43,908 bases of DNA, taken from NCBI RefSeq assembly GCF_004010195.1, contig NW_025214440.1, positions 1-43,908 on the forward strand, in the 5' to 3' direction. A program made the translations under genes and the position numbers. A model generated the notes under the pieces. That model did no database searches. It saw only the letters and a list, made by a program, of their open reading frames with translations, and was not told the DNA's origin. Below, piece after piece: positions 1-35,290 of this stretch. The stretch is from Chiloscyllium plagiosum (lineage: Eukaryota). Each line of letters starts with the position of its first letter. Within the stretch, counting starts at the first letter, position 1.

Positions 1-1090
1 GTGACCGTAACTCAAGCATTTTTAGCGTGTTGAGGAAAAGACCAAAAGAAAAAGGTTAGAAAAATAAAAATAATTTGGATGATGGAGGCAGATCTTTTCA
101 AAAAAAAAGACAGGATCTGGCCACAGTACAGTTAATTCTGTGAAACTGTAACAGAACAGCGTGGGGATGGTGGGGATTACATGCTCACAATGGAAGTGTC
201 ACTGCAGCATGTTACAACAAAGAAGAAATATAGGAAAACAAGACCGGAGAGCCTTGGGTGTCTACAAATGTTCAGACTGGAATTAAAAAGGAAAGCGAAG
301 CTTAAAGCAGGCATAAAGTGAGCAGGTCAATGGAGTCTCAGAAGTGTAGAGACCGTGCAGGGCTAAACTCAAGGAAGTAAGTAGAACAGCAAAAGTGTGT
401 GTGTGGGGGGGGGGGGGAAATGCTTACAAGAACTTAAGGACATTTTATCGGTTTATTAAGGGTAAGAGCGTAACAAGAGAATGAATAGGTAGTATTAAGA
501 TCCGAGGAGGCAACATGTACATAGAGCCAGAGAATATGTCAAACACGTACTACGTACCGGTCTTCAATTTGGAGAAGCAGTTCCTATATGCAATGTCTGT
601 TCCTGACAGTGTGACCTTGAGCAAATTGACACAGAAGCTGAGGAAGAATTGAAATTGACTCAGGATAAAAAGTGGGCAAACCCCGAGATCCAGATGGACT
701 GTATGTTAGATTGATGTGGAAGATGAGGGAGGAGATTACAGGCTCTTAAACTTTATGGGTTTTTTTTGTTGGCATGAGGTGGCATGATCGAACAGGACAA
801 CATCTAATGTAGGTTCAACTTCCACACAGAATGCTAGAAAAAAAAGACATAGGATTAAAGACCACCAGGTTTCACATCAGTGGGAGGGAAACAATTTTAG
901 AAAATTGTGATTCCTGGTGAGGAATGATCACTAAATATTTTCAAGGCTGAGATGGACAGATTTTTAACAAGGGTTACAGGGAAAATGCAGGAAAATGGAA
1001 TGGAAGGTTATCAGAATAAATGTACCCTAATTGAAAGGAAAAAAACAGAGTCAGCAAGCGGATGGACATACTGTCGCTCGTATATCTTCT
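1..1090 (+). mobile_element. Degenerate CR1 LINE fragments (ORF2 linker/RT start, then 3' end)
   Basis: Decayed CR1 ORF2-like text (ttttatcggtttattaagggtaagagc ~ FYRYIK.KR; gaggagattaca ~ EEIA), then a CR1 3' motif (aaatattttcaaggctgagatggacagattttt). No intact ORF. Confidence 0.6.
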
Positions 1091-1683
1091 GGTAAACGTT
1101 TTCTAATAGCCTGTGTTCATGGAACATCAGCATCTCTCCCTCAGGAGTGAGACACAGTTTGTAATGCAATCAATAGACTCAAGGAATTCATGAATGCAGT
1201 ACTAATAGACAGAAAAGACCAGAGGACTGCAACAACGCGGATTGGCTGTCAGGGTGAATATTTGCATCAGCGCAGTCACCACTACTAAAAGCAAGACACC
1301 CTCCAAGTCCAGGCATGGGCCTGATGTTAATGAGCGCTGAAGGCCCAAACAATACACCATTGTATTGTCTCCCGAGGAAAAGGGAAACCACTACCCCCTA
1401 CCAGGTGAAAGCCAGGAGGGCCCCACCGCAACACAGCTCCAGGTCACTGGGAGCAGTGACCCTCTGACAGCCCCGCTATCAGATATAGAAACAGACAGCG
1501 TGGACCCTGGTCTCAGCCTGATGACACCGAAGCGGGCAAATGGGCCGAGTGAGGAACTGGACAGCTACCTCAGCCCTGCGAGGGTCCAGCAGTTTGCATA
1601 CTGCATGGGGATGCAGACAGCTACCCGAGAGGGGCAGGACCAGCGACAATCGGACATGGGTAACCTTACAACCTGTTAACAAA

Positions 1684-4600
1684 ATGGGGTTTAAAATTGC
1701 AACTATCAATGTGCGCAGCATAAAATCTGCTGCGTGATGTGTTTCAACACTGGCCTTCCTGGCCAACGTGAAAGCCGATGTCCTGTTTCTGCAGGAGTGT
1801 GGGACACCGCACCTCAGCAGTTACAGGAGATGGTCGAGCTTGTGGGCCCATGGGCCGTCAGTGTGGTCGGGGGTAACGATAACTGCTCCTCGGGCCTGGG
1901 TATTCTGTTACGGGGAGGCAACTTCACCATCTCCGAGGTTAAGGAAGTGGTGGGCAGGCGCCTCCTCGTCGCTGATGTTACATACAGAAACGCTCCCGTG
2001 AGACTAATCAACATGTACGCCCCAGCGGGTAAGAGTGAACGGTTGGCCGTAGGAATGCTCCCCTGAGACTGATTAATGTGTACGCCCTAGTGGGTAAGAG
2101 TGAAAGGTTGGCCGTCCTGCAGCACGCTTCCACTGTTGCTGGCTACGTCCAGGCCGGTCATTCTGGCCGGAGACTTCAACTGTATCATTGATGCAGATGA
2201 ACGATCCGGCGGGGGGAAACAGTAAACTGGACACCACGTCCAGAGCCCTGATAGACACGGTAAAAGATGCCAAGCTGCATGACGTCTTCAGCGCCCCTGC
2301 AGACGGAGCGCAGCGTAGATACACCTGGTCACGGGCAGACGGGTCTATCCGCTCAAGGATAGATTACCAGTTTGTGTCCCGAACGCTCCGCTCCAGATCC
2401 ACCGACGTCAAGCCGGTGTTCTTCTCTGACCACTGCCTCCTGCTGGCCGACTGTCACCGACAGGACGAGCAGTGGGCTGGTAAGGGAANNNNNNNNNNNN
2501 NNNNNNNNNNNNNNNNNNNNNNNNNNNNNNNNNNNNNNNNNNNNNNNNNNNNNNNNNNNNNNNNNNNNNNNNNNNNNNNNNNNNNNNNNNNNNNNNNNNN
2601 NNNNNNNNNNNNNNNNNNNNNNNNNNNNNNNNNNNNNNNNNNNNNNNNNNNGTGCTCATGTTTCTTCTTCCAGAAGGTGCACAAAGAGAGCTCTGTGCTC
2701 AGCAGCCTGAAGGAAGAAGATGGCTCGGTAACGTCATCTCAGGCTGATATCATGAGGTTCAGTGAATCCTTCTATGCCAGTCTGTATGACTCGAAGCCAA
2801 CCGACAATGTGGCCTCCAAGTCGTTCCTGTCCTCTATCACGGAGGTCCTAGACGACGGAACACGAGAGAGGCTGGACCAGCCGCTATCTCTGGATGAGCT
2901 GACCAAGGCCCTCGAGTCCTTCGAAAAGAATAAAACTCCCGGAAGCGACGGCTTACCGGTCGAGCTCTATTCTGCTCTTTGGGACTTGATTGGTCGGGAC
3001 CTGCTGGAGGTGTATGTCAGTATGCTTCAGGCAGGTACCATGAGTGGATCCATGAGGAAAGGCATCAATTGGAGACCGATCTCACTGTTAAACACAGACT
3101 ACAAAATCTTGTGAAAGGTCATCGCCAACCGGGTCAGGTCTGGTCTGGGATCGGTGATCCACCCTGACCAAACCTGGGCTGTACCGGGCAGGAAGATCGC
3201 TGAGAGTCTCGCACTCCTCAGAGAAACGATTGCCTACGTGCAGGACAGTGGGGTGGACACCTGTCTCATCAGCCTGGATCAGGAGAAAGCCTTTGACAGG
3301 ATATCGCATACAAAAATGAGGGATGTCCTCTCCAAAATGGGCTTCGGGGAGGGAATCGCTAATTGGATCAGACTGCTCTACACCAACATTGTCAATGCAG
3401 TCTCAATCAATGGGTGGGAATCAGATAGCTTCCCAGTCAGATCTGGAGTCAGGCAGGGCTGCCCTCTCTCTCCTGCCTTGTTTGTTGCTGCATAGAGCCA
3501 TTTGCCGACTCCATCAGGAAGGATGCGAGCCTGAGAGGGGTGACTATTCCTAGCAGCGGGGGTCTGCAGGTTAAGGTCTCCCTGTACATGGACGACGTCG
3601 CCGTTTTCTGCTTGGATCCGCTGTCCGTGCACAGACTCATGTGCATCTGTGTCCAGTTCGAACGGGTCTCGGGGGCAAAGGTAAACCGAGGCAAGAGCGA
3701 AGCCATGCTCTTCGGGAACAGGGCCGACCAATCCTCGATCCCCTTCACGGTCAGGACTGACCACCTGAAGGTGCTGGGTATTTGGTTCGGGGGGGCTGGG
3801 GCGTGCGCCAAGACCTGGGAGGAGCGGATCAGGAAGGTGAGACAGAAACTGGGCAAATGGAAGCAACGGTCTCTCTCCATCGCGGGTAAAAACCTGGTCA
3901 TCAGGTGTGAGGTACTCTCAGTATTGTTATACGTGGCACAGGTCTGGCCTATCCCCAGAACCTGTGCCGCCGCAGTCACCCGGGCCATCTTCCACTTTGT
4001 GTGGAGATCAAAGATGGACCGGGTCCGAAGAGATGTAATGTACAAAGGCCGGAGCAATGGGGGAAAAAACACACCTAATGCAACCCTCACCCTGATGGCC
4101 ACCTTTGTGTGTGGCTGCATCAAGCTGTGCGTGGATTCCCGGTACGCAAACACCAAGTGTCACTACGTACTGAGGTTCTACCTGTCCCCGGTGTTGCGAA
4201 GGATGGGCCTGGCCTCGCTGCCGCGGAACGCTCCGAATAGTTGGACCGTTCCGTACCACCTGTCCTTCGTGGAGAAATTTATCAAGAAAAACACCTTTGA
4301 CCACAAGTCCATCAGGAAGTGGTCAGCACGTAATGTCCTTGAGACCCTTCGGGAAAAGGAGAGGGCAGATCCTGTCGAGCGGTTCCCTGAGCAGACTGTC
4401 AAAGCCATTTGGCAGAATGCCTCATCGCCAGAACTTTCCAACAAGCACCAAGACATGGCTTGGCTGGTGGTGAGAAGGGCTCTGCCAGTGAGATCCTTTA
4501 TGCACACCCGGACTCTCAGCCGCACCGCACGCTGCCCTCAAAGCGGCTGCGGGGGGGACAGACGAACATCAACTGTGCCTGGAGGATCATCAACTCGGTG

Positions 4601-4771
4601 AAGGACGCTCTCTGGGTGGTCCAAAACCTGTTGATCTTCCAGCTGAAGGAGTTGACCCCGGCTGAGTGTTGCAGACTGGCACATTCCAAGGACCAGGACT
4701 ACGTGTTGAGGGACGCGCTGAAGCTTGGGGCAGCTGCCTCCAAGGCGCGGTGGGGAAAGACCACCGTCTAA
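1684..4771 (+). pseudogene. Tx1 ORF2 (APE endonuclease - RT - C-terminal domain), frameshifted
   Basis: MGFKIATINVRS, VLFLQE, NMYAP, SRIDY, FSDH (APE); KTPGSDGLP, WRPISLLNTDYK, SLDQEKAFD, GVRQGCPLSP, YMDD at 3585-3596 (RT). Stops, frameshifts, small deletions near 3066 and 4560, and an N-gap at 2489-2651. Confidence 0.9.
1986..2115 (+). repeat. Diverged 65-bp direct tandem duplication in the Tx1 endonuclease
   Basis: 1986-2050 vs 2051-2115; 10 mismatches in 65 nt by manual alignment. Confidence 0.9.
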
Positions 4772-4983
4772 CATCTGCCTGCCTAAGAAGAACAGGGGGA
4801 CAATGCAGTCATTTGGGCTCCGCTGGCGTCTCAGCTCAATGTAATCCCACCAACCTGTGAATAGGAATGATCACCCTGTTTCGATACGCAAAGAAATGGA
4901 ATGTTTACAGAATGATGACATGTCCAATTGTATAAATTAAATATATATGAATAAAGTATATTTTTGAGAAAAAAAAAAACAAA

Positions 4984-5175
4984 TGTGGAGTGGTCTATTG
5001 ACGTGCTGTTAGTTGCAGAGTAGGTAGTAATGTTTTGGTTCCAGAGGCTTCAGTTAGCAGCAGCTTAGCAAAGGTGCAGGTAAGCTCAAGTAAAGTTTTT
5101 TTAACGCTAGTCTGACAGTAGTTGAGATGGCAGTTAGGGCAGTTGCATGTTCCTCCTATGGGATGTGGGAGCAGG
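4984..5175 (+). mobile_element. 5' end of a CR1 LINE (5'UTR + ORF1 start), cut by the Penelope element
   Basis: ATG 5127 gives MAVRAVACSSYGMWE, resembling the CxxC.MWE zinc-finger start of CR1 ORF1. Confidence 0.6.
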
Positions 5176-5200
5176 TCAGGCAGCATCCGAGGAGCAGGAA

Positions 5201-5237
5201 AATCGACGTTTCGGGCAAAAAGTGCTTCATCAGGAAT
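5201..5237 (-). ncRNA. Minimal type I hammerhead ribozyme motif (Penelope terminal repeat)
   Basis: Minus strand AUUC-CUGAUGA-AGCACUUUUUGCCC-GAAAC-GUC-GAUU: conserved core boxes and GUC cleavage triplet; stem II partly mutated. Confidence 0.7.
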
Positions 5238-5933
5238 CGAGGCAGGGTTCCTGCAGAGTGGAGAGATAAATGAGAGGGGGTGGAGGTGGGGAGAAAGTAG
5301 CATACAGTCCAACAGGTAAATGGGGGTGGGGATGGAGGTGATAGGTCAGGGATGAGGGTGGGAGAAAATAGCAAAGTGTCCATTGGGTGAATGGGGGGGA
5401 GGGGATGAAGGTGCTAGGTCAGAGGGGTGGGTGAAGTGGATAGGTGGAAAGAAAGATAGGCAGGTAGGACAGGTCATGGGGACGGTACTGAGCTGGAAGT
5501 TTGGAACTGGGGTGACGTGGGGGAAGGGGAAATGAGGAAGCTGGTGAAGTCCAAATTGAAGCCCTGGCGTTGAAGTGTTCTGAGGTGGAAGATGAGGTGT
5601 TCTTCCTCCAGGCTTCAGGTGGTGAGGGCGGGGCGGTGGAGGACGCCGAGAACCTGCAATGTCCTCGGCAGAGTGGGTAGGGGAGTGGAAAAGTTGGGCC
5701 ACAGGGCGGTGTGGTTGATTAGTGCAGGTGTCCTGGAGATGTTCCCTAAAACGCTCTGCTAGGAGGCGTCCAGTCTCCCCAATGTAGAGGAGACCGCTTC
5801 AGGAGCAACGTATGCAATAAATGATATTTGTGGATGTGCAGGTAAAATTTGATGGATTTGGAAGGTCCCTTTAGCGCCTTAGATGGAGGTGAGGGAGGAG
5901 GTTTGGGCGCAGCTGGCAGGGGAGGGTGCCAGG

Positions 5934-6003
5934 AAGGGAGGGTGAGTTGTTGGGGACGTGGACCTGACAAGGGAGGGTGAGTTGTTGGGGACGTGGACCT
6001 GAC
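5934..6003. repeat. Perfect 35-bp tandem duplication within the Penelope element
   Basis: aagggagggtgagttgttggggacgtggacctgac x2. Confidence 0.9.
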
Positions 6004-7889
6004 CAGGTAGTCACAGAGGGAACGGTCTTTGCGGAAAGTGGAAATGGCTGGGGAGGGAAATATATCCCTGGTGGTGAGGTCCATTTGGAGGTGGCGGAAA
6101 TGTCGTCGGATGATTTGCTTTATGTGAAGGTTGGTAGGGTGGAAGGTGAGCACCAGGGGCTTTCTGTCCTTTTTACGGCTGGAGCGATGGGGTTTGAGGG
6201 CGAAGGTGCGGGATGTGGATGAGATGCGTAGGCGGGCATCTTTAACCATGTGGGAAGGGAAACTGCGGTCTCTGAAGAAGGAGGCCATCTGGTGTGTTCT
6301 GGGGTGGAACTGGTCCTCCTGGGAGCAGATACGGTGGAGGCAGAGGAATTGGGAGTACTGGATGGCATTTTTGCAGCAGGTAGGGTGGGAAGAGGTGTAA
6401 TGCAGGTAGCTGTGGGATTCGTTAAAAAATGTCAGTGTCAAGTCAGTCATCATTAATGGAGATGGAAAGGTCCAGGAAGGCGAGGGAGGTGTCAGAGATG
6501 GTCCAGTTAAATTTAAGGTCGGGGTGGAATATGTTGGTGAAGTTGATGAATTGCTCAACATCCTCACGGGAGCACGAGGTGGCGCCGATGCCGTCATCAA
6601 TATAGTGGAGGAAGAGGTTGGGAGTGGTGCCGGTGTAACGACGGAAGATGGACTGTTCTACGGAGCCAACAAAGAGACAGGCATAGCTGGGGCCCTTATG
6701 GATGCCCATGGCTACACCTTTGGTCTGGAGGAAGTTGGAGGATTCGAAGGAGAAATTGTTAAGAGTGAGGACCAGTTCAGCCAAACGAATGAGAGTGTCA
6801 GTAGAAGGGTACTGATGGGGACGTCGGGAGAGGAAGAAAAGGAGGGCTTGGAAGCAGTGGTCATGGCGGATGGAGGTGTAGAGTGATTGGATATCCATGG
6901 TGAAGATGAGGTTTTGGGGGCTGGGGAAACGGAAGTCTTGGAGGAGGTGGAGTGCGTGGGTGGTGTCTCGAACATATGTGGGGAGTTTCTGGACGAGGGA
7001 GGATAGGACAGTGTCAAGGTCGGTATTGATGAGTTCGGTGGAGCTGGAGCATGCTGAGAAAATGGGTCAGCCAAGGTTGTCAGGCTTGTGGATCTTGGGA
7101 AGGAGGTAGAATCAGGCAGTGCGTAGTTCCCGGACTATGGGTTGCAAGCTGTGGGTGGGAGATCTCCTCCTGAGGCGATAAGTTTCTGTATGGTCTGGGA
7201 GATGATGGTTTGTTTTTGGGGGTGCGGTCATGGTAGAGGGGGCGGTAGGAGGAGGTGTCTTCGAGTTGGCATCATGGCTTCAGTAGTGCAGAGGTCAGTT
7301 TGCCAAACTACCACTGCACCCCCTTTATCTGCTGGTTTGGATTGGAGCTGAGGGAGTGAATGGCTGTGCGTTGTGAGGGTGAGAGGTTGGAGTGGTGGAA
7401 CGGGTTAGAAGGTTGAGTTGGATAATGTCTTGGCGGCAGTTGAAAATGAAAACATCGAGGGCCGGTAAAAAGCCAGCACGCAGTGGGTGGCGTGTGAAAT
7501 AGGAGGATGTCATTGATGCTGCAAAACGACAAACCAACGAAGTAGAGACTGCAAAGACAGATTGCTCCATGTTGTTCCTCCTAGCTCCCTTCGTAATGGT
7601 TCACGTGTGTTACATTAACGTGGTTTGCTGATGGTAAGGAGACACACCGGATGTTTGTGCGATGTCTCAAGGAAGCATCTTCCATCTCTGAGAAGATAGG
7701 CTAATCTTCTGCACGGTTCCAGAAGCTTTTGAGAATGGCCAACTCTATCAGAGTGTGGCTGCTGACAGGTTTGTGAACAACATGATGCTCAGTGCAGGGT
7801 CTCACTCCAACTGAACATTGAGACGTTGAGAGTTTTTCAGAAAGTGGAGCTCTCACTCAACCAACATGGAGGCTCCACAGAGATAGATA

Positions 7890-8500
7890 AACTATCATAG
7901 AGTAATAGAGTTCAACAGGCCTTTTTCCCCAAACTGGTCTATTTCGACTAAAATGTTCATCCATGCTAACTCCATTCCCTGCACTTGGCCCATATCCGTC
8001 TAAAGCTTTCCGATCATAAATTTGTCCAAATGTGAAAATATATATTGCGGGATACACGTTATATTTCACAATATCAATGTTTTGTTTTGGAAATAATGAA
8101 TGTTGGTTAATAACACTCAAGTTTTATTGCAATCACATTTTATTCTTTTGTTGCATAACAAGTTAAAACTCATTTCCTTCATAATCTCCCCATGGTACCA
8201 TCACCGCATGGATTAGTCTGGTGTAACACCTTTACACTGTCTCATTGTGGCAAGGAGATCATTCCTTAAAAAACGAGAGAAAATCTGTTCACAGTGCCCC
8301 AAGTACTGTCTCAATATCACTCTACAACTTCAATAAAGTGTCTTCACTCTTATATTTCTATCAGTTTTCAAAGAAGGACAGCACACATTTACTGTGCTGA
8401 TTACTTACTGCTCCGTATGACTTCTGTCAGTGGCTCATGACCAAGGACATCCAGCTCCTTTTCACTAAGAGCACTTCCCAACATCTCACCTTCTCATAAG
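7890..8500 (-). mobile_element. Degenerate CR1 3'-end fragments
   Basis: atcatagagtaatagag tail, cctgcacttggcccatatcc, and tgttcacagtgccccaagt are reverse complements of CR1 3' motifs. Confidence 0.5.
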
Positions 8501-8639
8501 TACAAAATGAGAAGGATGGTATGTTTTGCCAAATAATTTCATTGCCTTGCAAAGCGCTATGTTTCAGCACAGCCACACCAACAGCACACCACTATTGCCA
8601 TGGAGATGGTTGAACATGCTGAGAAGTTGATGGCCTAGC

Positions 8640-9075
8640 TGTGTGATCTCTGGAATATTAACCCAGGGACACAGGTGATGACCCAGACCATGGATTTTAA
8701 TCTCTCTACGGCAAATGTTGGAATTTGAATTCAATAAAATATCAGGAATTGAGAATCAAATGAAACAATGAAACCACTGTGTTTGTCCTACCTGGCACAC
8801 TCATACCCTTCAGGGTTGGAAATCTACCATCTTCACCTGGTCGGTCTTACATTTAACTCCAGATCCACAGCACTGTGGTTAACACACAATTGCAATTTAA
8901 AATGGCCAAGCCAGCCACTCAGTTACATCACTCGCTACAAAGTCTCAAAGAAGTGAAACCGGGCGGATCTCAGCACTGTCTCCTTACAGCCCATGGTCTG
9001 CAGTGCATCAGGAAGGCAGCTCACCAACACCTTCTCAGGACAATGAGGAAAGGGAATTAAATATGGGCCCAGCAT
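8640..9075 (+). mobile_element. Old shark SINE (SacSINE1/DeuSINE-like) with LINE-type 3' tail
   Basis: ggaatttgaattcaataaaa...ggaaatctaccatccttcacctgg...actccagatccacagc...aaggcagctcaccaacaccttctc; related pieces at ~9540-9850 (minus) and 35310-35520. The family name is from recall. Confidence 0.45.
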
Positions 9076-9269
9076 CTTATTAATGAATAATGAAAGATGA
9101 TCACACTCGGGAAAGAGAGACAAAGGGAAACAACTCACTTCAAACCGGGACTTTGATGTACACCTTACATGGGCATGAATTTCAATAACATGGGAACAGG
9201 AGGAAAATAAATAAGATTAATCTGGATTTTTATTTCCATTCCAGCTGATCATCAACAATCCCTTTGTTT

Positions 9270-9490
9270 CTTTCTCTCTATCTCTCTCTTTCTCTATCTG
9301 TTCAACTCCCTCCTTCTCCCCTTCACAACAGACATCCCTGTCACCAACATCAGTCACACTATTTCCTAGCTGCGTTCAGTTTTGATGTATGGCCGTTGGA
9401 CTCGAAATGTCACTTCTATTTTCTCTCGACCTGAGGCTGTCAAATCTCTTCAGTTTCTCTGGCACTTCCTCATTCGTCTTGTTTGTGATC
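9270..9490 (+). mobile_element. Penelope-derived terminal fragment with a decayed hammerhead motif
   Basis: ttgatgtatggccgttggactcgaaatgtc (9382-9411), followed by a ttttctctc...gctgtcaaatct...agtttctctggcact tail similar to 21570-21610 and 32205-32290. Confidence 0.5.
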
Positions 9491-10311
9491 TCTTGCATCA
9501 TTCTTTGTTTTTTATTCAAGCTTTCATGTTGTTATTACATGGGATGTCTGCATCACTGGCAAGGGCAGCACTTGTTGACCTCACTAAATGCCTTTTGCTG
9601 TGAGGCCATTCCTAGAGGCAGTTGGTCTGACGTCAGTCTTAATTCAAACCAGGTAATAATGCTGGATATTTTTACTAAAGGAAAACAGTGAAATAGATAA
9701 ACTTATTGACAAAGTGCTGGTGGGATTATATTAGTAAAATTCGCTTTTATTTCCTGTTCCTGTCATTTGAATTTAAGTTCTGTCATTCTCTGAAATAGGA
9801 TTTGAAACAGTGTCTTGAGTCACTGGGCTACTGAATTACGTGAATAGCGACATTACTACTCTGACACAGTGTACCTGTCATGAATTTACTTTACAGACAA
9901 GAACAAGATTGTGATGAAAACATTTGTAACGGAAAGAGAGATTATAAGACAACTGGAAGCATAAAGTCTGAATTTTACCAAGGTATAGATAATGGTTTAT
10001 TTAGCACCCACACTGACGTTAAGATGGGGTCTGGGGATATCATGGAGCTGGTCGTGGGTACCTTGGTGATGGAGAGAATACCAAGACATAAATCAATTCA
10101 GGGCAAATAGGTACTTCGAGATTGTGAACAGTCTTGTTCTCAGATGTTTGTGAGGGCGGGTGTGTGGGGGGTTCTGAAATTTGTGGGCAATGAATGGATT
10201 TGCCTTTGAAACTGAAGACAATAGTTTTGATCTTTACAAAATATTGATAACAGAAATATCATTGAAGTTCGCCGTGGCTTATGGGATTAATAAATTGATA
10301 GAGATGGGGAG

Positions 10312-10320
10312 ACTTACCAG
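10312..10320 (-). other. 5' splice donor CTG|GTAAGT
   Basis: Plus strand acttaccag at 10312-10320; perfect +1 to +6 consensus. Confidence 0.8.
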
Positions 10321-10576
10321 GAACACCAACAATAGCGAGCATGGGATAGTAACCAGCCTGCATAATCAGCAGTACACCATATATCCGATCTGATAATATG
10401 TGCCAATACGAGGAAACACGGTAAAGACCCCAGGATAAACTCCTTTCCATTGTTCCTGCATTCCAGTCTATTTTTCTTAGAGTCTGAACCATCGCTGCGA
10501 CATTCCAGTTTACTGTTCTCAGATTCTGATCCATTGTTGGAACAGTCCAGTGTGTTGTTCTCAGATTATGATCCAT
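10318..10576 (-). CDS. First coding exon of a GPR139/GPR142-like class A GPCR (N-terminus + start of TM1)
   Basis: MDHNLRT...RIYGVLLIMQAGYYPMLAIVGVP ends exactly at a consensus donor (CTG|GTAAGT, phase 1, 259 nt). YYP.LA.VGVP matches the TM1 start of the GPR139-like family, normally continued by (V/A)N in the next exon. The start ATG is ambiguous. Confidence 0.75.
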
Positions 10577-10615
10577 TGTTGGAACATTCCAGTCTACGGT
10601 TCTCAGATTCTGATG
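10448..10615 (-). repeat. 4 x 42-bp (14-aa) tandem repeat at the GPCR N-terminus
   Basis: HQNLRTVDWNVPTM / DHNLRTTHWTVPTM / DQNLRTVNWNVAAM / VQTLRKIDWNAGTM; no indels. Confidence 0.9.
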
Positions 10616-10708
10616 TCTCCTCTCCCTGTCTCTGCAACAGCTGATCCCTGTTAGTGTTGGATGCGATGCATCCGCAGCTATAATGGGATAAATCATTACA
10701 AGACGCCC

Positions 10709-10718
10709 TTTAAATATA
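10709..10718 (-). promoter_or_regulatory. TATA-like box of the GPCR gene
   Basis: Minus strand TATATTTAAAGGG about 135 nt upstream of ATG 10576. Confidence 0.45.
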
Positions 10719-11205
10719 GAAGAGGAAAGACATCCAGTGACATAATTAAGATCCATGTAGACTGACATCAATCACAGTCACTGAACAAACAGATCCAGTT
10801 AACTCCTTTCAGTATGCTACCTTCAGTTCACAATAACAATTGGATTGAATTGAATGTTGAATCGCTGGCTAATGGTCACATCTGCCATCAGCAATTACTG
10901 TCGTGAAGTTAGTTGCGAGGGAGAATGATGGATGCTTTCCTATCGCAGGCTCGATGCTTCTGCTGTTTTGTCCATTTGCAAGAATGTAACTGCCTGAACA
11001 CTCCACCATGACCACCCAAAATAAACACAATCTAGATATTGTTAACATGCTGATTGCACCTCGATTAGAACAGGTTCCTTGCAACAGATTCTCAGTGGGC
11101 ATATTTGCCCTGACCATGCACAGGAAGTGCGGATTTGTCTGGACATTCCTCTCATTGCTCTAATAAGATAACTTTGAATCTTCAACACACAATCTTCAAC
11201 ACAAA

Positions 11206-13310
11206 GTAGGCTTCAAGGGAAGGGCGCAATTGATATGTGGAGCATGTTCAAGGAGCAACTATTGAGTGTACTTGATGACTATGTACCTGTCAGGCAGGGC
11301 GGAAAGAGTCGTGTGAGGGAGCCGTGGTTTAATAAGGAATTGGAATCCCTTGTCAAAGGGAAAAGGGCGGCCTATGTAAAGATGAGGCATGAAGGTTCAA
11401 TTGAGGCGATTGAGAGTTATAAGGTAGCCAGGAAGGATCTGAAGAGAGAGCTAAGAGCAGCAAGGAGGGGACATGAAAAGTCCTTAGTTGATAGGATTAG
11501 GGAAAACCCTAAGGCTTTCTATAGGTATGTCAGGAATAAAAGAATGACTAGGAGAGGAATAGGTCCAGTCAAGTCTGGTAGTGGGAAGTTGCGTGTGGAG
11601 GCTGAAGAGATTAGGGAGACACTGAATGACTACTTTTAGTCAGTATTCACTCAGGAACAGGACATTGTTGCCGATGTGAGTACTGAGTCACAATTAATTA
11701 GAATAGATGGCTTTGAGGTATGTAGGGAAGAGGTGTTGGAAATTCTGGAAAGGATGAAAATAGATGAGTCCCCTGGGCCTGATGGCATTTATCCTAGGGT
11801 TCTCTGGGAAGCAAGGGAGGAGATTGCAGAGCCATTGGCCTTGATTTTTATGTCCTTGTTGTCTAAAGGAATAGTGCCAGAAGACTTGAGGATAGCAAAT
11901 GTGGTTCCCTTGTTCAAGAAGGGGAGTAGGGATAACCCTAGTAACTATAGGCGGTGAGTCTCACTTCTGTTGTGGGCAAAGTCTTAGAAAGAATTCTAAG
12001 GGATAGGATTTATGACCATCTGGATAGTAATAATGTGATCAAGGATAGTCAGCATGGTTTTGTTAAGGGCAGGTCGTGCCTCACAAACCTTATTGAATTC
12101 TTTGAGAAGGTGACTAAGGAGGTGGACGAGAGTAAAGCGGTAGATGTGGTGTATATGGATTTTAGTAAAGCGTTTGATAAGGTTCCCCATGGTAGGCTAC
12201 TGCAAAAAATACGGAGGTATGGCATTGAGGGTGAGTTGGACGTTTGGATTAGGAATTGGCTGCCTGGAAGAAGACAGAGGGTAGTAGTTGATGGTAAAGG
12301 TTCATCCTGGAGTGCAGTTACGAGCGGTGTTCCGCAAGTATCTGATTTGGGACCATTGCTGTTTGTCATTTTTATGAATGACCTGGAGGAGGAGGGGCTA
12401 GAAGGTTGGGTGAGCAAGTTTGCGGATGATACGAAAGTCGGAGGAGTTGTTGACAGTGAGGAAGGATGTGGCAAGTTACAGCGGGATATAGATAAGCTGC
12501 GGAGCTAGGCAGAAAGGTGGCAAATGGTGTTCAATGTAGGTAAGCGTGAAGTGATTCACTTTGGTAAAAGTAACAAGAAGATGGGGTACTGGGTTAATGG
12601 TCGGATACTTAGTAGTGTGGATGAGCAGAGGGATCTTGGTGTCCATGTACACAGATCTCTGAATGTTGTCACCCAGGTAAATAGTGCTGTGAAGAAGGCA
12701 TATGGCGTACTGGCTTTTATTAGTAGAGGAATTGAGTTCTGGAGTCCTGAGGTCATGTTGCAGTTGTATACGACTCCGGTGCGGCCGCATCTGGAATATT
12801 GTGTTGAGTTTTGTTCGCGATACTATAGGAAGGACATGGAGGCACTGGAACGGTTGCAGAGGAGGTTTACCAGGATGTTGCCTGGTATGGTAGGAAGGTC
12901 GTATGAGGAAAGGCTGAGGCACTTGGGGCTGTTTTCATTGGAGAAAAGAAGGTTTAGGGGTGACTTGATAGTGGTGTACAAGATGATTAGGGATTTAGAT
13001 AGGGTTGACCATGAGAAGCTTTTTCCATGTATGGAGTCAGCTATTACGAGCGGTCATAGCTTTAAATTAAGGGGTGGTCGGTATATGACAGATGTTCGGG
13101 GTAGATTCTTTACTCAGCGAGTCGTGAGTTCATGGATTGCCCTTCCAGTAGCAGTGTGGACTCTCCCTCCTTATGGGCATTTAAATGGGCATTGGATAAG
13201 CATATGGAGGATAGTGGGCTAGTGTAGGTTCGGTGGGCTTGGTTCGGCGCAACATCGAGGGCCAAAAGGCCTGTACTGCGCTGTATTTTTCTATGTACTA
13301 TGTTCTATGT
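11206..13310 (+). mobile_element. Relatively young 5'-truncated CR1 LINE (ORF2 RT + 3' tail)
   Basis: [63 protein letters not shown]; few disruptions; ends in ctatgtactatgttctatgt tail. Confidence 0.95.
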
Positions 13311-14029: not shown

Positions 14030-17000
14030 GACTGGGGGCCCTTTGCAGTATTTAGAGAGCGAGTGGCAGGTGTTAGTGTCTCTTATTTCGTGTGTTGATT
14101 TGGTGAGCAAATAGAGCTTCAGATAGCAATGGTTCTTGCAGTAACCAAGCTTGTTTTGGAGGTGGAGGAAATGACCTTGGGTGTTTTACAAAATGCACAT
14201 AAGTCCAAGCCACGGGAATTAGTAGGCGAAGGGAGTTGAAGCTACCTCCTAATGTGAGGAAAGATGAGATGATTGCAGCAGTAACTCAGCATTCCAATTT
14301 GCTAGAAACTCCGTCAGGATCTGTAGAGGTGACTAATCTTCAATTGCAAATGAAGCAGCTTGAGTTAGAAGCAGAAATGAAGCAGTTTGAGCAACGACTA
14401 CCATCAGAAGAGGAAGAAAGAGAACGAATAGCTTTAGCAGAGGAAAACGAAAAAATAAGAAATAGCTTTAGCAGGAGAGAAAGAAAAGGGAGAGCATTTG
14501 TGCTTCAGAGATGGACACCTCGAGAAAGTGGCTAAACATTTTCAGTGGCCAGTGGCCAGTGACCATGTGGGTTTTGTTGACCCACACAAAACTTGTAGGT
14601 AGAGCTAGTGAGGTATTCGTAACACTATCAGAGGAGTGATCTGGAGTATATGAGGAGGAGACATGTGCAGATGAGCTTATGCCAGAAGCCTACAGACAAC
14701 ATTTCAGGAATCTAAGGAGGCATCCTGGTCAAATTCATGTTGAGTTTGAAAGGATCAAACAAAGTAATTTTGATAGATGGATAAGAGCTTTAAAAAGAGA
14801 GCAAACCTACGATGCTCTTCGAGAAACAATTAATTTGGAGGAGTTCAAAAATTCACTGCATGACAGTGCAAACCCATTTAGAAGAGCAAAGAGTTAAAAC
14901 GGCAAGGCTGGTAGCTGAAGTGGCTAATGATTATGACTAGTGATTAATGATTATAAAACTTGTTTTGGCTTCCAGAATCAATTTCAGTCCATGATGGATA
15001 GAAACTGGGGCAAAATAAAATCCTCAGAGAGAAAGGGAAAGGTAGATTTCGGTGAAGATCATAATGATAACTTTCCACAGGGCAAAAAGGAAATACTTGA
15101 AGGGGACAAAGAAGTTAAAAAGCTCTGGTGTTTCCATTGCAACAAATTAGGACACATGAAATCATTGTGTTGGTGGTTTCAGAAAAAGGAACAGACGCAG
15201 GAAAACGGGATAAGCCTGGGAGTTTCGTTGGAGTGGTAACAGAAAGCACAGTTGTGCTAGAAAGCTGCATCAGAGTGTACAAACTGATCGGAGGTTTGTA
15301 AAGGAGGAAGTGCCATATCTGCTTCGAAAATATACCTGCAAAGGGAAAGTTTATTCACATAGGCCAGGTAAAGAGGATACAATTTTAAGAGACTCGGCAT
15401 CCTCTCAAACTGTGATGCTGAAAAATGAGGAGTTATGTACTCCTGAAGAACTATTTCCAGAAAAGATACTGCTAAAGGCAATTCATCTTGAGACAAAAAG
15501 TGCAAAAGTTTGTAAAGCGAGGATAGCGTGTCCAGAAAAGTGTGGAGGAATTGTGGTAGGGGTATTGGACAAACTCTCAGCTCCAGGAATACAATTTGTC
15601 CTGACGAAAAAGATAGCTGATTTATAGATAGGAGTACTGTCAACTCTGGTTGAAAAGCCAGTGGAGACGCAGGCAACTGAAGCAATGCAGGAGTCTTATC
15701 CCAGAAACTTTCCTGATTGTGGGGTAACAAGGTCCCAGTGTCTCCAGTTGAAACAGGCAATATCAAAAATGTAAAGATAAGGAAGCTTAAGTGGCATTAA
15801 CAGAGACTTCGTTCCATCAGGTAGTTGAGACAAAACAGGAACAAGTAGGTGATCATGCAAATATTTTTAGTTCAGCTAAACCAATTGAGTTACAACAGAA
15901 AGATAAAAGCTTAAACTAGTTGTATCAAAAAGCATATATGTTAGGAATATTGAATGTATCCCTGAGTGTCATCACCTTAAAAATGATGTCCAGCTAAGGA
16001 AAGGGAGACTATCACATATTCAAGGAGATGTGAAATGTGAAGAGATTCATCAAATCGTTTTGCAAATGGGGTATAGAAAGGAGGTGATGCGAACCTTAAC
16101 TGAGCTACCAACTAGAAGTCATTTAGGAGTGAGGAAAACACAGGCTGAAATACAGAGACATTTTACTGGCCTGGACTGCAACAGGATGTAGTTGAATTTT
16201 ACCAGACATGTCATACATGTCAGGAAAATGGAAAAACACAAGCGATAATAAAATCTGCACATTTTTAAAACTATTCTGGCATTTGAGGAACCTTTTACAA
16301 GAGTCTTAATTGATTGGCTACGTTGCCGATCTCAAACAAAAAGTGGGCACCATTATTTGTTAACAATAATGGAGGCATCGACTAGGTTTCCAGAGGCCAC
16401 CCCAAGATGCCATAACACAGCTAAAAGAATTGCAAAGGAATTACTCTTTTAAAAAAAAATAGATACGGACCACCAATAGAGATACTGTGAGATCAAACTT
16501 CACATATAAATTATTGAATACAATGTCTTCAGAATAAAGCAATTCTAATCTAATGTGTATCATCCAAAATTGCCGGGAGCTAGAAAGGTGATATTAAACA
16601 TTATAGACCATGATGAGGGCTTATGATCAGGATTATCCAGATGATTACGGTAAGGAAGTCCCATTTTCGATTTTTGTGATCAGAGATACACCAAATTAAC
16701 AGAGCAAATTCGATCCATTTGACTTGGTGTTTGGGCCATTAAAATGGATTAAGGAGAAAGTAGTAAATCAGAATTCAAAGGTCATACTTTTGGACTATGT
16801 CTCAAATATTAGGGAACAATCAATAGCGTTAGGGAATTGGCTAGACAGCATTTAAAAATATTGCAGCATGCAATAAAACAGGAAACGGACAGGAAATTAA
16901 AAATTGGCAATTTTGCTATCGGGGATAAGGTATTACTGTTAGTTACAGTGATAGGTGAACCTTGAAAAGCAAGGCTTAGTGGACCATATAAAATAAAAAG

Positions 17001-18078
17001 GATATTGAGTAGGGGTAACTACTTGATAAGTACTCCAGACAGAAAGACATCTCACAATGTATGTAAAGTGAATATGCTCAAAATGTATTTTCACAGGGAA
17101 GGAAAGCAAGAGGAGAAGGTGTTAATGATTATGGCATTCCTTAAATAAAGTGGACAATGAGATAGTTGTCCAAAATTGGGATAAATGATTGAATCTTCTG
17201 AGAAAAATGGAAATGACCAGAAAGAGTTATTATTATTACATGGGGAGATAAGCAGGAATTAACTTGGAAGTACAAACCTAATTGTGCATAATGTAGCTTT
17301 AGGAGATGTTGTTATGATTAAGCAACATCCTTACAGGGATAATCTTCTGAAGCTGGCACAGGTTCAGAAGGGGATTGAATGCATGCTGTAAGATGACATA
17401 ATCAATGTGTGTTACAGTGACTGGAACTCACCCATAGTTATGGTGCCAAAGCCAAATTGTACCCAATAGTAATATGTGGACTATCGTAATGCCAGTGCCT
17501 TTAAAAACATTGGTGTATACCGAGTTCCATGGTTGGAAGACTGTGTTGAAAATGTGGGACAAGCAGCTTACATTTGGTATGAAAAACGTGCCGGCCACAT
17601 TTCAGCAGCTAACCAATAGGTTACCGGATTATCTAATGTTTGGTGTACATTGATGACCTGATGATTTTTAGTCAGTCATGGAAGGAATATATACAGCAAT
17701 TATTGGATTTGTTCGATTGACTTTGGAAGGAAGGCTGGGTGGTAAACCTAGCAAAAGTGAATTTGCTTTAAAACAAAGATGACCTTCCTGGGCCATGCTT
17801 TTGGACACAAATAAACGGTGTCATGGGATGTAAAAGTGAAGGTAATTGGGGAATTTCCCATACTGTTGACAAAAGGAACAGTACTATGGTTTCTGGAAAT
17901 GTGTAGATTTTATCGAAGGTTTGTGCCACATTTTCGCAATGGGATTGCTCCACTCACAGAATTGTTAAAGAAAGGCAAGAAGTTTCAGTGGGCAGAGGAC
18001 TGTCGAAAGGCATTTGACGGCATGAAATATGCATTAATCACTGCCCCACTATCAGCCACACGTGATTATGCAAAACCA

Positions 18079-18439
18079 TTCAAGGTGGCTTTAAATGCAA
18101 GTGCTATGGGTGTTGGTGCTGCACTCCTGCAGGAAAGCGACGAGAAGACAGAAAGACCAATTGTTTTTTTTTCTCCAAAAGTTGAATGTTCAATGTTAGA
18201 AATATTCAATAGATGAGAAAGTGACTGTGAGCTTTGTGTTGGCACTACAACATTTCAGTTTCAAGGTGGCTTTAAATGCAAGTGCTATGGGTGTCGGTGC
18301 TGCACTCCTGCAGGAAAGCGACGAGAAGACAGAAAGACCAATTGGTTTTTTTCTCCAAAAGTTGAATGTTCAATGTTAGAAATATTCAATAGATGAGAAA
18401 GTGACTGTGAGCTTTGTGTTGGCACTACAATATTTCAGT
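18079..18439 (+). repeat. Near-identical ~181-bp tandem duplication in RNase H of element A
   Basis: 18079-18259 vs 18260-18439, only a few differences. Confidence 0.9.
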
Positions 18440-27889: not shown

Positions 27890-28132
27890 TATTTCATTGA
27901 AAACTTGGCTAGGCAGACAGAATGGTCCAAGGATTTATGGGGAATGCTAGTTCGGTATAAACTGGTACGTAGGGTGAGTGAAGTATATTCTCCATTGTCA
28001 GATGAGGAGTTAAGAGATTCTGAAGACGGCAAGCAAGCTATTTCAAGTGCTCACAAATTGGTACCTGAAAAATATAGACAGCAGTACAGAAACATAAAGG
28101 AGGAACCACGTCAGACTTATGTTGTGTTTGAA

Positions 28133-28210
28133 AGAACTAAACATAGGCATTTTGATAGGTGGATGCTTGCTAGAACTAAACATAGGCATTTTGATAGGTG
28201 GATGCTTGCT
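28133..28210 (+). repeat. Perfect in-frame 39-bp tandem duplication in gag
   Basis: RTKHRHFDRWMLA x2. Confidence 0.95.
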
Positions 28211-31200
28211 TTAAAGATAGATACGACATATGAGGCTCTAATGGAGATTATTCTGCTGAACGTGTTGAAGAACTCACTTCCAGAGATGACAAGAGTTCAT
28301 GTGGAGGAATATAAAGTTCAGGAATTGAAAAGGGCAGGAGAATTAGCAGATGAATACATGTTGCTGCATAAGACAAACTTCCAGTCAGAATTTCGTCCTG
28401 TGAGGGATAGAATTTGCGAGAAGGGGAGATGCTACAGTACAAAGGAAAGAGTAGAGAATAAGAGTTTACCACAAGTTAAAGAAGATGCCCAAGAGAATGG
28501 AAAGGAGGTGAAAGGCCTCAGGTATTTTTACTGTCATAGAATGGGACACAGAAAATTTCAATGGTTTCAAAAGGGCACTGGTAAAATGTATTTTCACTGC
28601 CATAACATCGGATATGTAAGGTCACAGTGCTGGTCATTAAGAAAGGCAGTATGGGAGAAGATATGGTAAAATAAGTTAAGCCAGTGGCATTAGTGAAGGT
28701 ATTAAAGGAATCCCAACAAGGTCCGAAGAGCTGCAGGAAAGTGCACAGCCTAGGCAGGGGCTGGGTATGGAGTTAGTATCTGATCTCTATAAAGAACTCG
28801 CCTCTGTGAGTAAAGTTTACTCAGAAACAATAGAGGGAGAAGGAGAAGAAGTTATCATTTTGAGAGATACAAGATCTAACCAGTTTCTAATAGTAAGAGA
28901 TGAGCAAATTTGCAGTCTTCCTGATCTGTTACCCGAGAATGTCGTATTTTGTGGGATAGTTGGATAGAAATTTAGCTTTCCTCTACTTAAGATCAGGTTG
29001 GAGTGCCGACACAAATTTGGGGAAGTAACCATGGGAGTGACTGACAGAGTGTCAGTTCTAGGAATCCAGTTTGTTCTTGAGAATGGTTTAGCAGGGTCCA
29101 AATTGGAAGCGATACCCCTAGTTGTGGAGAATCCCAAGGAAGACCAAGAAACTGAGGATTTAAAACAGAAATATACTGGTATTTTCCCAGTAACCAGATC
29201 CCACTATCCTAAGTCACAGCAAGAAGCACAAACTATAGACAACGATGAAGGAGTTAAGGTTCAGTTAGCTGACATCCTGTTTGACGTAATGGTGCAGAGA
29301 AACCATGAACAAAGAGAGGGTCAGTCAAAGGTGTTTAGTCCTGAAAGGCGAAGGGATTGGCAACAGACAGGCAAGATAATAAAACATATATATATGCGGA
29401 TGCGTACTTTGAGAGTGAGGAGGAGATATTTCTGATGATTATTATCAGAAATATAGAATCCTATGACGGAAGTGGAGACTACGGCAGGTTAGTGCAGAGG
29501 AGTAATGTGCTGAAGTGTGCCAGATTATGTTGCCGGTAGCAAAGAGACAGGAAGTATTATGGGTAGCACGTGAACTAACTGTGGGAGGTCACCGAATGGT
29601 ACGAAAGACACAGGCGAAGGGACAAAAACATTTTTAATGACCTGGAATGCACAAAGATGTGGTTAACTTTTGGCATACGTGTCATACATGCCAAATGGTA
29701 GGGAGGCCACAGGCTGTAATGAAACTAGCACCTCTGTCGTGAATTCCCACATTCGAAGATCCCTCCTTTTGGGTTATAACTGAATGTGTACGTCTCCTCC
29801 TGAAAAGTAGAGGAGAGAAAGAATTGGAAAATCAGGTGTTAATTACTGCCCCAAAGAGTGAGGAATCAAATCCAAATGTTGTGAATTTTGACGTTCCTCA
29901 AAATATGTTAAAAAAAAGTATAAGTCCTTGAGCAGTGGGGTCGATTAGTAAACTATCTGTCTCAGGAGCATTGAACGCAGTTGAAAGGTTTGTTATTGCA
30001 GTATGAGGACATATGCAAGGATAATATGTGGAGGACTAATGCTATTATACATGAGGTAGACTTGCGAATACTGTTCCGATAAAACAACATCAATATCCTC
30101 TTAATCCTCTCAAAGCCAGACCGGTCCAGAAGGAGGTGGAGGTCATGCTAAATGAGGTCATTATCGAACCAAACCAGAGTGAGTGGAGCTCGCTGATCAT
30201 ATTAGTGCCCAAACCGGATGGGACTCAATGATTTTGGCTGGATTATTGGAAGGTCAACACTGTTGCAAAATCAGACATATCCAATACTGACATTGGAGGA
30301 CTGTACGGAGAAAGTTGGACAAGTCAGTTACATCAACAAGTTGGAGTTAATGCGTAGTTTCTGGCAGGTACCTTTATCAGAGATGGCGAAAGACGTTTCT
30401 GAATTCTAACGCCATATGGACTGTATCAATTAAAAGTGATGCCCTTTGGAATGACGAATACACCCAACCCATTCCAAAGACTCATGGACAGAATTGTGGT
30501 CTGATTAATAAACTGTGCAGTCCGTTTGGATGATGTAGTGATCTTTAGTTCGTTCTAGAAAGATCACTTGGTACAGTTGGCAGAGCCTTTTGAACGAATA
30601 CAAGAAACAAACCTGGTGATAAAATTAAACAAAACTGAATTCGCGAAAGCAGCCATAATGTTCTTGGGACAAAATATCGGTCATGGAAGGTTGACCCCAT
30701 GGAACGCAAAGTCAAAAGGTTTCGAGCAATTTCCACGACCAGCCTCGAAGAAAAAGGAACTTCCCTCCTTTGTAGTCAGCGGATTCTATCGGAAGTTTAT
30801 TCCAAACGTCAGCAGTGTAGTGGCACCGTTAACCGACTTGCTGAAGAAGAACACAAAGTTTTGGTTGACAGAACAGTGCAGAACAAGGCATTCGACCATT
30901 AAAAAGAAATATTGATCACCAAACCAGTTTCAGCTACACCAAACGCTTGAAAACCTTTCATAGTTGCTGTTGACGCGCGTGACATAGGAGTTGGAGCTGT
31001 ACTGCTACAGGCCAATGAGATGGAATCGTAGTTTTCAAAGAAATTCAACATCCACCAGAGAAAATAGTCCACGACTGAGAAAGAACTATTGAGTTTGGTA
31101 GTAGAGTTATGATATTTTAATGTGTACTCATAAACAGTGTGTTGGAGACGGTTGTGTACACGGATCCCAATCTGCTTACATTCTTTGAACACTTTAAAGA

Positions 31201-33899: not shown

Positions 33900-35290
33900 G
33901 CAGCAGCAGAAGCAGAATTAAATTCAAGCACAATCTGTAACATTTTTCCTGGGATAATCCCTCAGTCTACCATTCCAACCACGTTGATCTATGGTTCAGT
34001 GGTGTATAGGTGAACGTGCCACTGTCCCAATCGTGTGTACCTAAACCTGATGACAACCTGTGAAACTACCGTAATTGACCGCTTGCATTCCAAACAGCAG
34101 AACTAACATCTGATAGAGAGGGTGTAATGATCCTAACACCAACAAATCAACAGTACTTTCACTTCCAGCCATAAATGGTGATGGACGGTTAAACAATTTT
34201 ATGGAGGAGAGGTCTCCACTATTATCCCAATCCTAAATAATGGAACAGTCCTGTACATCAGTGTACAAGGATGATAAGGATGTCGTTTTGGCAAGATACT
34301 CCGCCAGACATGTTGAGTGGATAATCCACATCACCCTCGCCATGATGCCCACAGAGTCACAGATGCCCGTCTTCAATCAATTTAATTCACTGCAAGTAAC
34401 ATGAAGAAACAGGTGAACACAATAGCTACGACAAAGGCAATGGGCCGTGACACCATTCCTGTAATAGGACTGAAGACTTGTGCTGCACAACAAGCCGTGT
34501 CCCTGGGGAGGCTGTTTCATTCCAGCTCCAAGTAACATGAAGAAACAGGTGAACACAATAGCTACGACAAAGGCAATGGGCCGTGACACCATTCCTGTAA
34601 TAGGACTGAAGACTTGTGCTGCACAACAAGCCGTGTCCCTGGGGAGGCTGTTTCATTCCAGCTCCAACTCTGACATCTCCCTGGCAATGTGGAAAATTAC
34701 TCAGCTATGTCCTGTCCCCTTAGAGGAGAATAATTACAGTCTAACCATTTACCACCCCCTCAGTCCCATCANNNNNNNNNNNNNNNNNNNNNNNNNNNNN
34801 NNNNNNNNNNNNNNNNNNNNNNNNNNNNNNNNNNNNNNNNNNNNNNNNNNNNNNNNNNNNNNNNNNNNNNNNNNNNNNNNNNNNNNNNNNNNNNNNNNNN
34901 NNNNNNNNNNNNNNNNNNNNNNNNNNNNNNNNNNNNNNNNNNNNNNNNNNNNNNNNNNNNNNNNNNNNNNNNNNNNNNNNNNNNNNNNNNNNNNNNNNNN
35001 NNNNNNNNNNNNNNNNNNNNNNNNNNNNNNNNNNNNNNNNNNNNNNNNNNNNNNNNNNNNNNNNNNNNNNNNAAGCTGTTTCATTCCAGCTCCAACTCTG
35101 ACATCCTCTTGGCAATATGGAAAATTACTCAGCTACGTCCAGTCCCCTAAGAGGAGAATAGTTACAATCTGACCATTTACCACCCCCTCAATCCCATTAC
35201 GATTGTTAAACTGATGGAAGTTCTTTTGGACAGATCTGTCAAACAGCACAGAAATAACCGGCTCAGTGTGGTTTCCAACATGGTCCCTAC
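33900..35290 (+). mobile_element. Old CR1/L2-group LINE ORF2 fragment with duplications and an assembly gap
   Basis: TTKAMGRDTIPVIGLKTCA...LAMWKITQLCPV...IYHPLS (RT N-terminal motifs). Confidence 0.7.
34393..34664. repeat. Identical 136-bp tandem duplication; 34648-34770 recurs (diverged) at 35075-35198 across the gap
   Basis: Direct comparison of the copies. Confidence 0.9.

Follow-up and report, generated by a model that had tools for sequence, protein, structure and literature searches.

The window analysed here, the whole stretch of 43,908 nucleotides from Chiloscyllium plagiosum (contig NW_025214440.1), contains on its minus strand, between 10576 and 10318, what we regard with a probability of about 0.97 as coding exon 1 of a receptor gene from a GPR139-derived family of class A G-protein coupled receptors (GPCRs) that has expanded in sharks. 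The exon encodes, from its N- to its C-terminal end, a repeat N-terminus, a short helix and the first half of transmembrane helix 1 (TM1). The features of the locus, in the direction of reading, are as follows.

10770..10811, minus: upstream block common to many paralogues, placed by a step in contig depth and a motif scan; probably the proximal promoter (putative)
10718-10709, minus: TATA-like box TATATTTAAA / TATATTTA, non-canonical in this copy
10577..10690, minus: inferred 5' leader, placed from the TATA spacing
10459..10614, minus: 42-bp tandem repeat of 3.7 copies, coding for 14-aa units and making up half of the exon
10318..10576, minus: coding exon 1 (259 nt from ATG 10576; 86 codons plus 1 base) of the GPR139-derived class A receptor
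10403..10444, minus: variable post-repeat segment, the region of highest entropy (2.2 bits)
10319..10387, minus: first half of TM1, where all residues conserved in the family (R, I, Q, YYP, L, A, G and P) are intact
10312..10317, minus: phase-1 splice donor GTAAGT (5' splice site), interrupting the codon that precedes N1.50
1..10317, minus: inferred intron, 10.3 kb or longer, containing remnants of retroelements and one 163-N gap at 2489-2651

GPR139 and GPR142 are class A GPCRs activated by aromatic amino acids, and their TM1 is interrupted by an intron near GxP|xN. An earlier note, made from the letters of this DNA, had pointed to an open reading frame ending in YYPMLAIVGVP with a GTAAGT donor at that very point, and this holds in full, all on the minus strand: the 86-residue version starting at ATG 10576 has exactly this C-terminal end, G10318 is the last base of the exon, and the donor follows at 10317-10312 in phase 1. 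The split of TM1 by an intron, which the same note had proposed, falls in the codon before N1.50, and the intron of GPR139 itself presumably lies at the same codon. The ATG-started frame from 10768 to 10259 (minus strand, 169 aa) continues through the donor and stays open to its end, so the remark that the track of open reading frames hides the donor by reading through it was correct. This longer frame was rejected as the protein, since it spans the TATA-like box. The hexamer GTAAGT is rare, with 7 occurrences among 42,771 bases of the minus strand (0.00016 per base), yet it sits where 100 of 120 tblastn alignments of family members end (72 at 10319 and 28 at 10322), which argues that its placement is not due to chance.

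Searched alone, the exon matches nothing in Pfam at E≤0.001 and gives no useful match in the PDB, the ESM Atlas or a word-indexed search, as would be expected of an open frame and a donor that arose by chance in non-coding DNA. That explanation is refuted, and its probability is negligible, by a phmmer search against 1.84 billion representative proteins, which returned 31 hits with a best E of 4e-46, and by the alignments that stop at the donor. The protein search of the 86-residue exon, suggested as a check in the earlier note, yielded shark matches named after GPR139; among 20 hits looked up, the 12 that bear a name or accession all come from sharks. The TM1 motif is present in 29 of the 31 hits, where it continues as x-N in 10 (spliced receptors), as (G/S/C)-(K/E) in 14 and as neither in 5; the second continuation indicates a frame read through a GTRAG donor at the same site. 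The Pfam family 7tm_1 is matched at E≤0.01 by 8 of the 31 hits, 5 of them above the curated cut-off, and the homologues P0023 and P0024 reach 62-64 bits against a cut-off of 30.5.

When 121 full-length shark receptors were aligned to the window with tblastn, 119 matched the exon (best E 5e-25), which, together with the 7tm_1 domain of the family homologues, bears out the proposal that a class A receptor related to GPR139 has its first exon here. A profile of exon 1 was built from the exon tails of 119 members, 2 of the 121 having been dropped; on it the 3' 44 residues of the exon score 67.1 bits, within the range of the members (50.6-94.3, with 15 of 119 lower), against 10.4 bits for the best of 1000 shuffles. 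Searching with an exon-1 profile yielded 31 long proteins, every one of them from a shark. The last 25 residues of the exon share 20 identities with the best member, and the median of 14 is the same as that among the members. Since its score lies within the members' range and the alignments stop at the donor, the exon appears to be a normal, undecayed exon of the family. Family transcripts are modelled as spliced at this phase-1 donor to a sequence that codes for the remainder of the seven-transmembrane (7TM) domain; the start of this second exon, given in the earlier note as (V/A)N..AIVIL, has to be corrected to (V/I/A)-N-x-x-T-I, in which the T is invariant.

Of 4,863 candidates compared with the full-length homologue P0024, 2,020 match it at E≤1e-10. 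The best 120 of these 2,020 are all from sharks, 116 of them named GPCR 139, and the other approximately 1,900 are presumably also family members for the most part, since human GPR139 reaches only 29 bits against P0024. The marks of class A receptors are retained almost throughout the 121 members (D2.50 in 120, R3.50 in 120, W6.48 in 121). The predicted structure of P0024 (mean pLDDT 70) comprises seven long helices and a short helix ahead of TM1 (residues 19-28), which is the equivalent of the variable segment 10403..10444.

Upstream of the exon, the TATA-like box noted previously is present, but its word fails the canonical TATAWAWR, and the loose pattern that it fits occurs 13 times in the 42,771 minus-strand bases; taken alone, the box is weak evidence. 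Four homologous read-through frames carry (S/T/H)-I-N-(K/E) at the same position, which by back-translation would fit a canonical TATA box in those four copies. The putative promoter block is delimited by summed contig depth, which is 37,215 in the bin 10770-10829 versus 1,869 in the next bin, and 20 contigs diverge behind 10811; likewise, the bin 10710-10769 has 13,385 and the bin 10650-10709 has 453. Within the promoter block shared by paralogues lie the words TAATTA (10748), TGTCAG (10767) and TGATTGA (10774), the first of which may be homeodomain-like and the other two Pbx/Meis-like; a motif scan of the block found no EBF-type site. Within the inferred leader, an upstream open reading frame of 6 codons starts at ATG 10671, and a further ATG at 10587, in another frame, overlaps the main start.

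The 42-bp tandem repeat, which the earlier note did not mention, places an in-frame ATG every 14 codons (10576, 10534, 10492 and 10450), so the true start codon is uncertain. Its units differ by 26 non-synonymous versus 7 synonymous single changes, which indicates little protein constraint on the repeat. N-glycosylation sequons are absent from the exon, as they are in 21 of the 114 members counted, 7 of the 121 having been left out for lack of the anchor motif. The same 42-bp repeat, in another reading frame, forms the C-terminus of the catshark gene model P0004, which probably combines a gene with the first exon of the paralogue next to it, and the model P0028 joins a family member to an integrin alpha. 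To judge from such models, the annotation of these receptor clusters is unreliable.

GPR139-like paralogues are reportedly numerous in the annotations of cartilaginous fishes, and the earlier note regarded the locus as part of a receptor expansion in sharks. The matches agree with this, and the confirmation extends to sharks only: the best 120 of the 2,020 include 64 from Heterodontus (horn shark), 25 from Heptranchias and 12 from Rhincodon, and 61 of the 64 Heterodontus sequences have pairwise identities below 95% over the exon-2 part (median 78%). In a quick tree of all 121 rows (none omitted, family members only, midpoint root), species labels change 14 times versus 53.1 after shuffling (0 of 200 shuffles as low), and there are species-specific clades of 56 Heterodontus members (support 95) and 20 Heptranchias members (support 96). 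This pattern fits lineage-specific duplication, by which the family appears to grow, with a possible share of gene conversion; kin also have labels in common.

The DNA around the exon is itself repeated. Contigs matching the 1.77 kb from 9450 to 11220 at ≥88% identity number 2,549 and 1,333 in two public runs (X1 and X4), both of which behave as genomic DNA, with all 30 bins covered and no joint at 10318. Summed depth drops from 78,075 in the bin with TM1 and the donor to 1,552 in the adjoining intronic bin, nine paralogous X4 contigs diverge at 10311, just beyond the donor, and a second block shared by paralogues spans about 10710-10811 and covers the TATA-like box and the sequence upstream of it. 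Close duplicates of the exon-intron boundary have 88-95% identity, and the 124-base piece 10331-10454 was matched without any difference. Exon, donor and putative promoter are thus common to many paralogues, and the summed depth, which is no copy number, hints at hundreds of related exons. The island that the earlier note described as free of transposable elements is multi-copy DNA, not unique. The start of the intron (9450-10300) is also multi-copy at ≥88% identity in both genomic runs; it could be a co-duplicated intron of a young subfamily or consist of short repeats. A search of Rfam gave 0 matches.

With this much duplication, the expansion could be mostly neutral, a duplication-prone cassette that spreads in repeat-rich regions and leaves few members functional. 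Co-duplicated flanks, a 42-bp repeat that evolves without codon constraint and the many partial gene models are in line with such a course, which we nonetheless regard as improbable: dozens of divergent full-length paralogues per species, as in Heterodontus, keep the invariant TM residues, which implies purifying selection.

A separate matter is the integrity of this particular copy. No exon 2, intact or decayed, was found in 1-10317 of the window by a scan of hydrophobicity and motifs; tblastn with the 121 members, and hmmsearch --max applied to all six frames, located none anywhere in the window, where the other tblastn matches are mostly to the ends of some gene models or weak (E≥0.01); and an acceptor-plus-Asn scan of 1-10317 gave 12 sites, none of them receptor-like. 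It follows that either the intron is at least 10.3 kb long or the exon is an orphan. In single-cell RNA data, which are too shallow here, run X5 contains 17 partial reads of 12.96 million and run X6 contains 0 of 8.3 million, with no joint; the comparison covered 4 of 16 listed runs.

The family may accordingly be real while this copy is an orphan or decaying first exon, left by duplication, from which no receptor is made. To the missing second exon within 10.3 kb can be added the non-canonical TATA box, the lack of sequons and the upstream ATGs, a LINE-like reverse transcriptase element whose start is some 520 bp upstream of this box, and the boundary duplicates of 88-95% identity in a family with many partial database models. 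The form of the box and the lack of sequons are weak signs of decay, and truncated or fused models among the homologues suggest that pseudogenes are frequent. On the other side, the frame is uninterrupted, the donor shows no flaw, and TM1 has conserved its residues as well as intact members have; moreover, long introns full of repeats are common in shark genomes. We therefore lean towards an intact gene, while an orphan exon has a substantial, though smaller, chance of being the true state; the copy may be truncated or a pseudogene.

Other elements of the window are mostly remains of retroelements. The inferred intron contains two broken non-LTR retroelements, at 1737-4601 (plus; zf-RVT, E 0.001) and at 5746-6898 (minus; RVT_1, E 8e-6), the second of which we take to be Penelope-like in look, and the broken LINE-like element upstream of the exon occupies 11235-13222 (plus; RVT_1, E 1.5e-13). 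Decayed LTR-retrotransposon-like remains lie at 14269-18439 and 27944-30915 (plus), with RT_RNaseH_2 at E 2e-15 and a weak SCAN match. The tandem-repeat listing of the window has 18 rows, and two-copy, near-exact tandem duplications are found at 18079-18439, 34393-34667, 36617-36838 and 28133-28210 (180, 136, 111 and 39 bp, respectively); these, one of which adjoins an N gap, are possibly assembly artefacts.

The ligand pocket of the family was examined by mapping positions through helix numbering and a family profile alignment to human GPR139. In GPR139, F3x33, H5x43 and W6x48 constitute a deep hydrophobic pocket, N7x38 and R6x51 hold the backbone of the amino acid in a model in which E3x32 acts indirectly, and replacement of N7x38 by Ala sharply reduces the responses to Trp and Phe while surface expression falls to 53%, according to the available part of PMC5430874. 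The aromatic floor of this pocket is kept in the 121 members (3x33 is Y in 89 and F in 28, 5x43 is H in 115, and 6x48 is W in 121). The polar anchors N7x38, R6x51 and E3x32 occur in none of the 121, where hydrophobic residues stand instead: F109, Y7, L3, I1 and V1 at 7x38, L71, F48 and I2 at 6x51, and L116 and V4, with a single R, at 3x32. Three residues are invariant additions (D2.57, R2.61 and D3.37, each in 121 of 121), position 7x35 is E or D in 118 of 121, P6.50 is absent, and 7.50 is T in 118 of 121. Mean entropy amounts to 2.2 bits in the post-repeat N-terminus, 2.0 in ECL3, 1.8 in ECL2 and 0.27 in TM3, with the conservation overstated because the 121 rows are those closest to one query. 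As far as these alignments tell, the family varies mostly on its extracellular face, over a near-invariant core.

The earlier note had considered amino-acid sensing possible. That the receptors are sensors of aromatic amino acids acting like GPR139 and GPR142 would agree with the retained aromatic floor, with GPR139 as the best PDB sequence match and with the aromatic ligands favoured by the wider GPR139/142-MIP-FMRFamide group (available text of PMC8557429). Sensing in the manner of GPR139 is nevertheless unsupported, as N7x38, R6x51 and E3x32 are found in 0 of 121 members, and two ligands would need no hundreds of paralogues; we consider this role quite unlikely. Rather, the family would constitute a diversified repertoire of receptors for outside ligands, the functional reading that we find reasonably probable. 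In such a repertoire, the fixed receptor core would bind a shared aromatic, probably cationic, group, while the N-terminal helix together with ECL2 and ECL3, forming a variable outer vestibule, would set specificity. The ligands would then probably be varied outside peptides, or else cationic molecules of aromatic nature, instead of free L-Trp or L-Phe, and the receptors would act in a sensory or sentinel cell type.

Two tentative proposals concern this cell type. That the family serves a chemosensory epithelium is possible but doubtful. A role in immune or barrier surveillance, on leukocytes, mast-like cells or sensory neurons of the skin, with a repertoire that senses microbial or host cationic peptides, has a slightly slimmer chance; the rodent Mrgpr and Fpr expansions offer a parallel, and lineage-specific turnover, a fixed core that has invariant acidic residues beneath an extracellular face that varies, and the PAF and peptide receptors among the next-best structural relatives would all be in keeping with it, but the same features also suit chemosensation.

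Taken further, the chemosensory proposal would make the family an undescribed seventh vertebrate chemoreceptor family, derived from GPR139, of which each shark would have dozens to hundreds of genes, sparsely expressed in chemosensory cells, a suggestion that we put forward as speculative. Lineage-specific expansion with rapid turnover, a trait of chemoreceptor families, is seen in the few label changes of the tree. Odorant receptors have pockets that vary, and the near-invariant TM3 would make the family unlike them. In a catshark library of brain and olfactory epithelium, the 50 most specific genes include no GPCR, and V2Rs are missing as well (PMC11979771, in the part available). If the suggestion is true, the repertoire exceeds the known olfactory receptor (OR) set of sharks and overturns the view that the smell and taste of cartilaginous fishes rest on only about 20-60 receptors; if the family is immune or peptidergic instead, it represents a large unstudied receptor system of sharks.

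Among known receptors, the label GPR139-derived rests on best matches, and the family would be best described as a greatly expanded derivative with a rebuilt pocket. A profile of 54 family sequences finds human GPR139 as its best PDB match (E 1.8e-14), followed by the PAF receptor (4e-10); a Foldseek search with the P0024 model brings up class A receptors of a general kind, among which GPR139 takes rank 4, at 21% identity. The ESM Atlas neighbours fall into 'GPCR 139', FMRFamide-receptor-like and Srw-type clusters, in agreement with the published link of GPR139/142 to the protostome MIP, proctolin and FMRFamide receptors (PMC8557429, available part). Orthology with GPR139 was rejected: 64 of the top 120 matches come from Heterodontus, and the identity to human GPR139 is 21%, against 70% for zebrafish GPR139 according to the available text of PMC7318219, which also gives GPR139 two exons.

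The family shares with GPR139 (PDB 7VUG, 9M42) and GPR142 the YY..L..xGxPxN pattern of TM1 and the residues F/Y3x33, H5x43 and W6x48. Unlike GPR139, which is a single conserved gene, it has dozens or more paralogues per shark, has replaced N7x38, R6x51, E3x32 and P6.50, has T at 7.50 in almost all members, possesses C3.25 and carries 14-aa repeats in its N-terminus. Shark proteins of RefSeq and GenBank named 'probable G-protein coupled receptor 139' (XP_048419718.1, XP_048379911.2) belong to the same family and have the same split point, and the 10 such homologues looked up are 42-62% identical over the exon. This name is automatic only, and no existing record was assigned to the present copy; the family as such is already in the databases under that name, and the locus is one more, ordinary member of it. 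GPR210A and GPR210B of bony fishes and the coelacanth are likewise extra GPR139/142-related fish genes, but they form small gene sets (PMC6504862, available part).

A literature search, in which subscription journals lay mostly outside the scope, found no description of this shark expansion. In the text available, 'shark' and 'cartilag' do not occur in the GPR210A/B survey (PMC6504862), nor 'cartilag' in a 2025 review of GPR139 (PMC12208981), nor 'gpr1' in the catshark genome paper (PMC11979771), and GPR139 has 0 occurrences in a survey of vertebrate chemoreceptors (PMC10869828) and in a catshark olfactory study (PMC10116579).

The family resembles the OR, TAAR, V1R, V2R, T1R and T2R families in its lineage-specific clades, which in those families arise by birth and death (PMC10869828, available part), and differs from all of them in belonging to another GPCR lineage and in conserving its TM pocket. 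According to the same source, the complete olfactory receptor genes of cartilaginous fishes number 20-62 (mean 43.8), the smallest repertoires among vertebrates, as compared with at least 61 distinct members of the present class A family in one shark, which stand outside the published OR counts under the name of 'GPR139'. The small OR repertoire of cartilaginous fishes has been explained as discrimination traded for sensitivity (PMC10116579, in the part available), an explanation that would need revising if the family is chemosensory.
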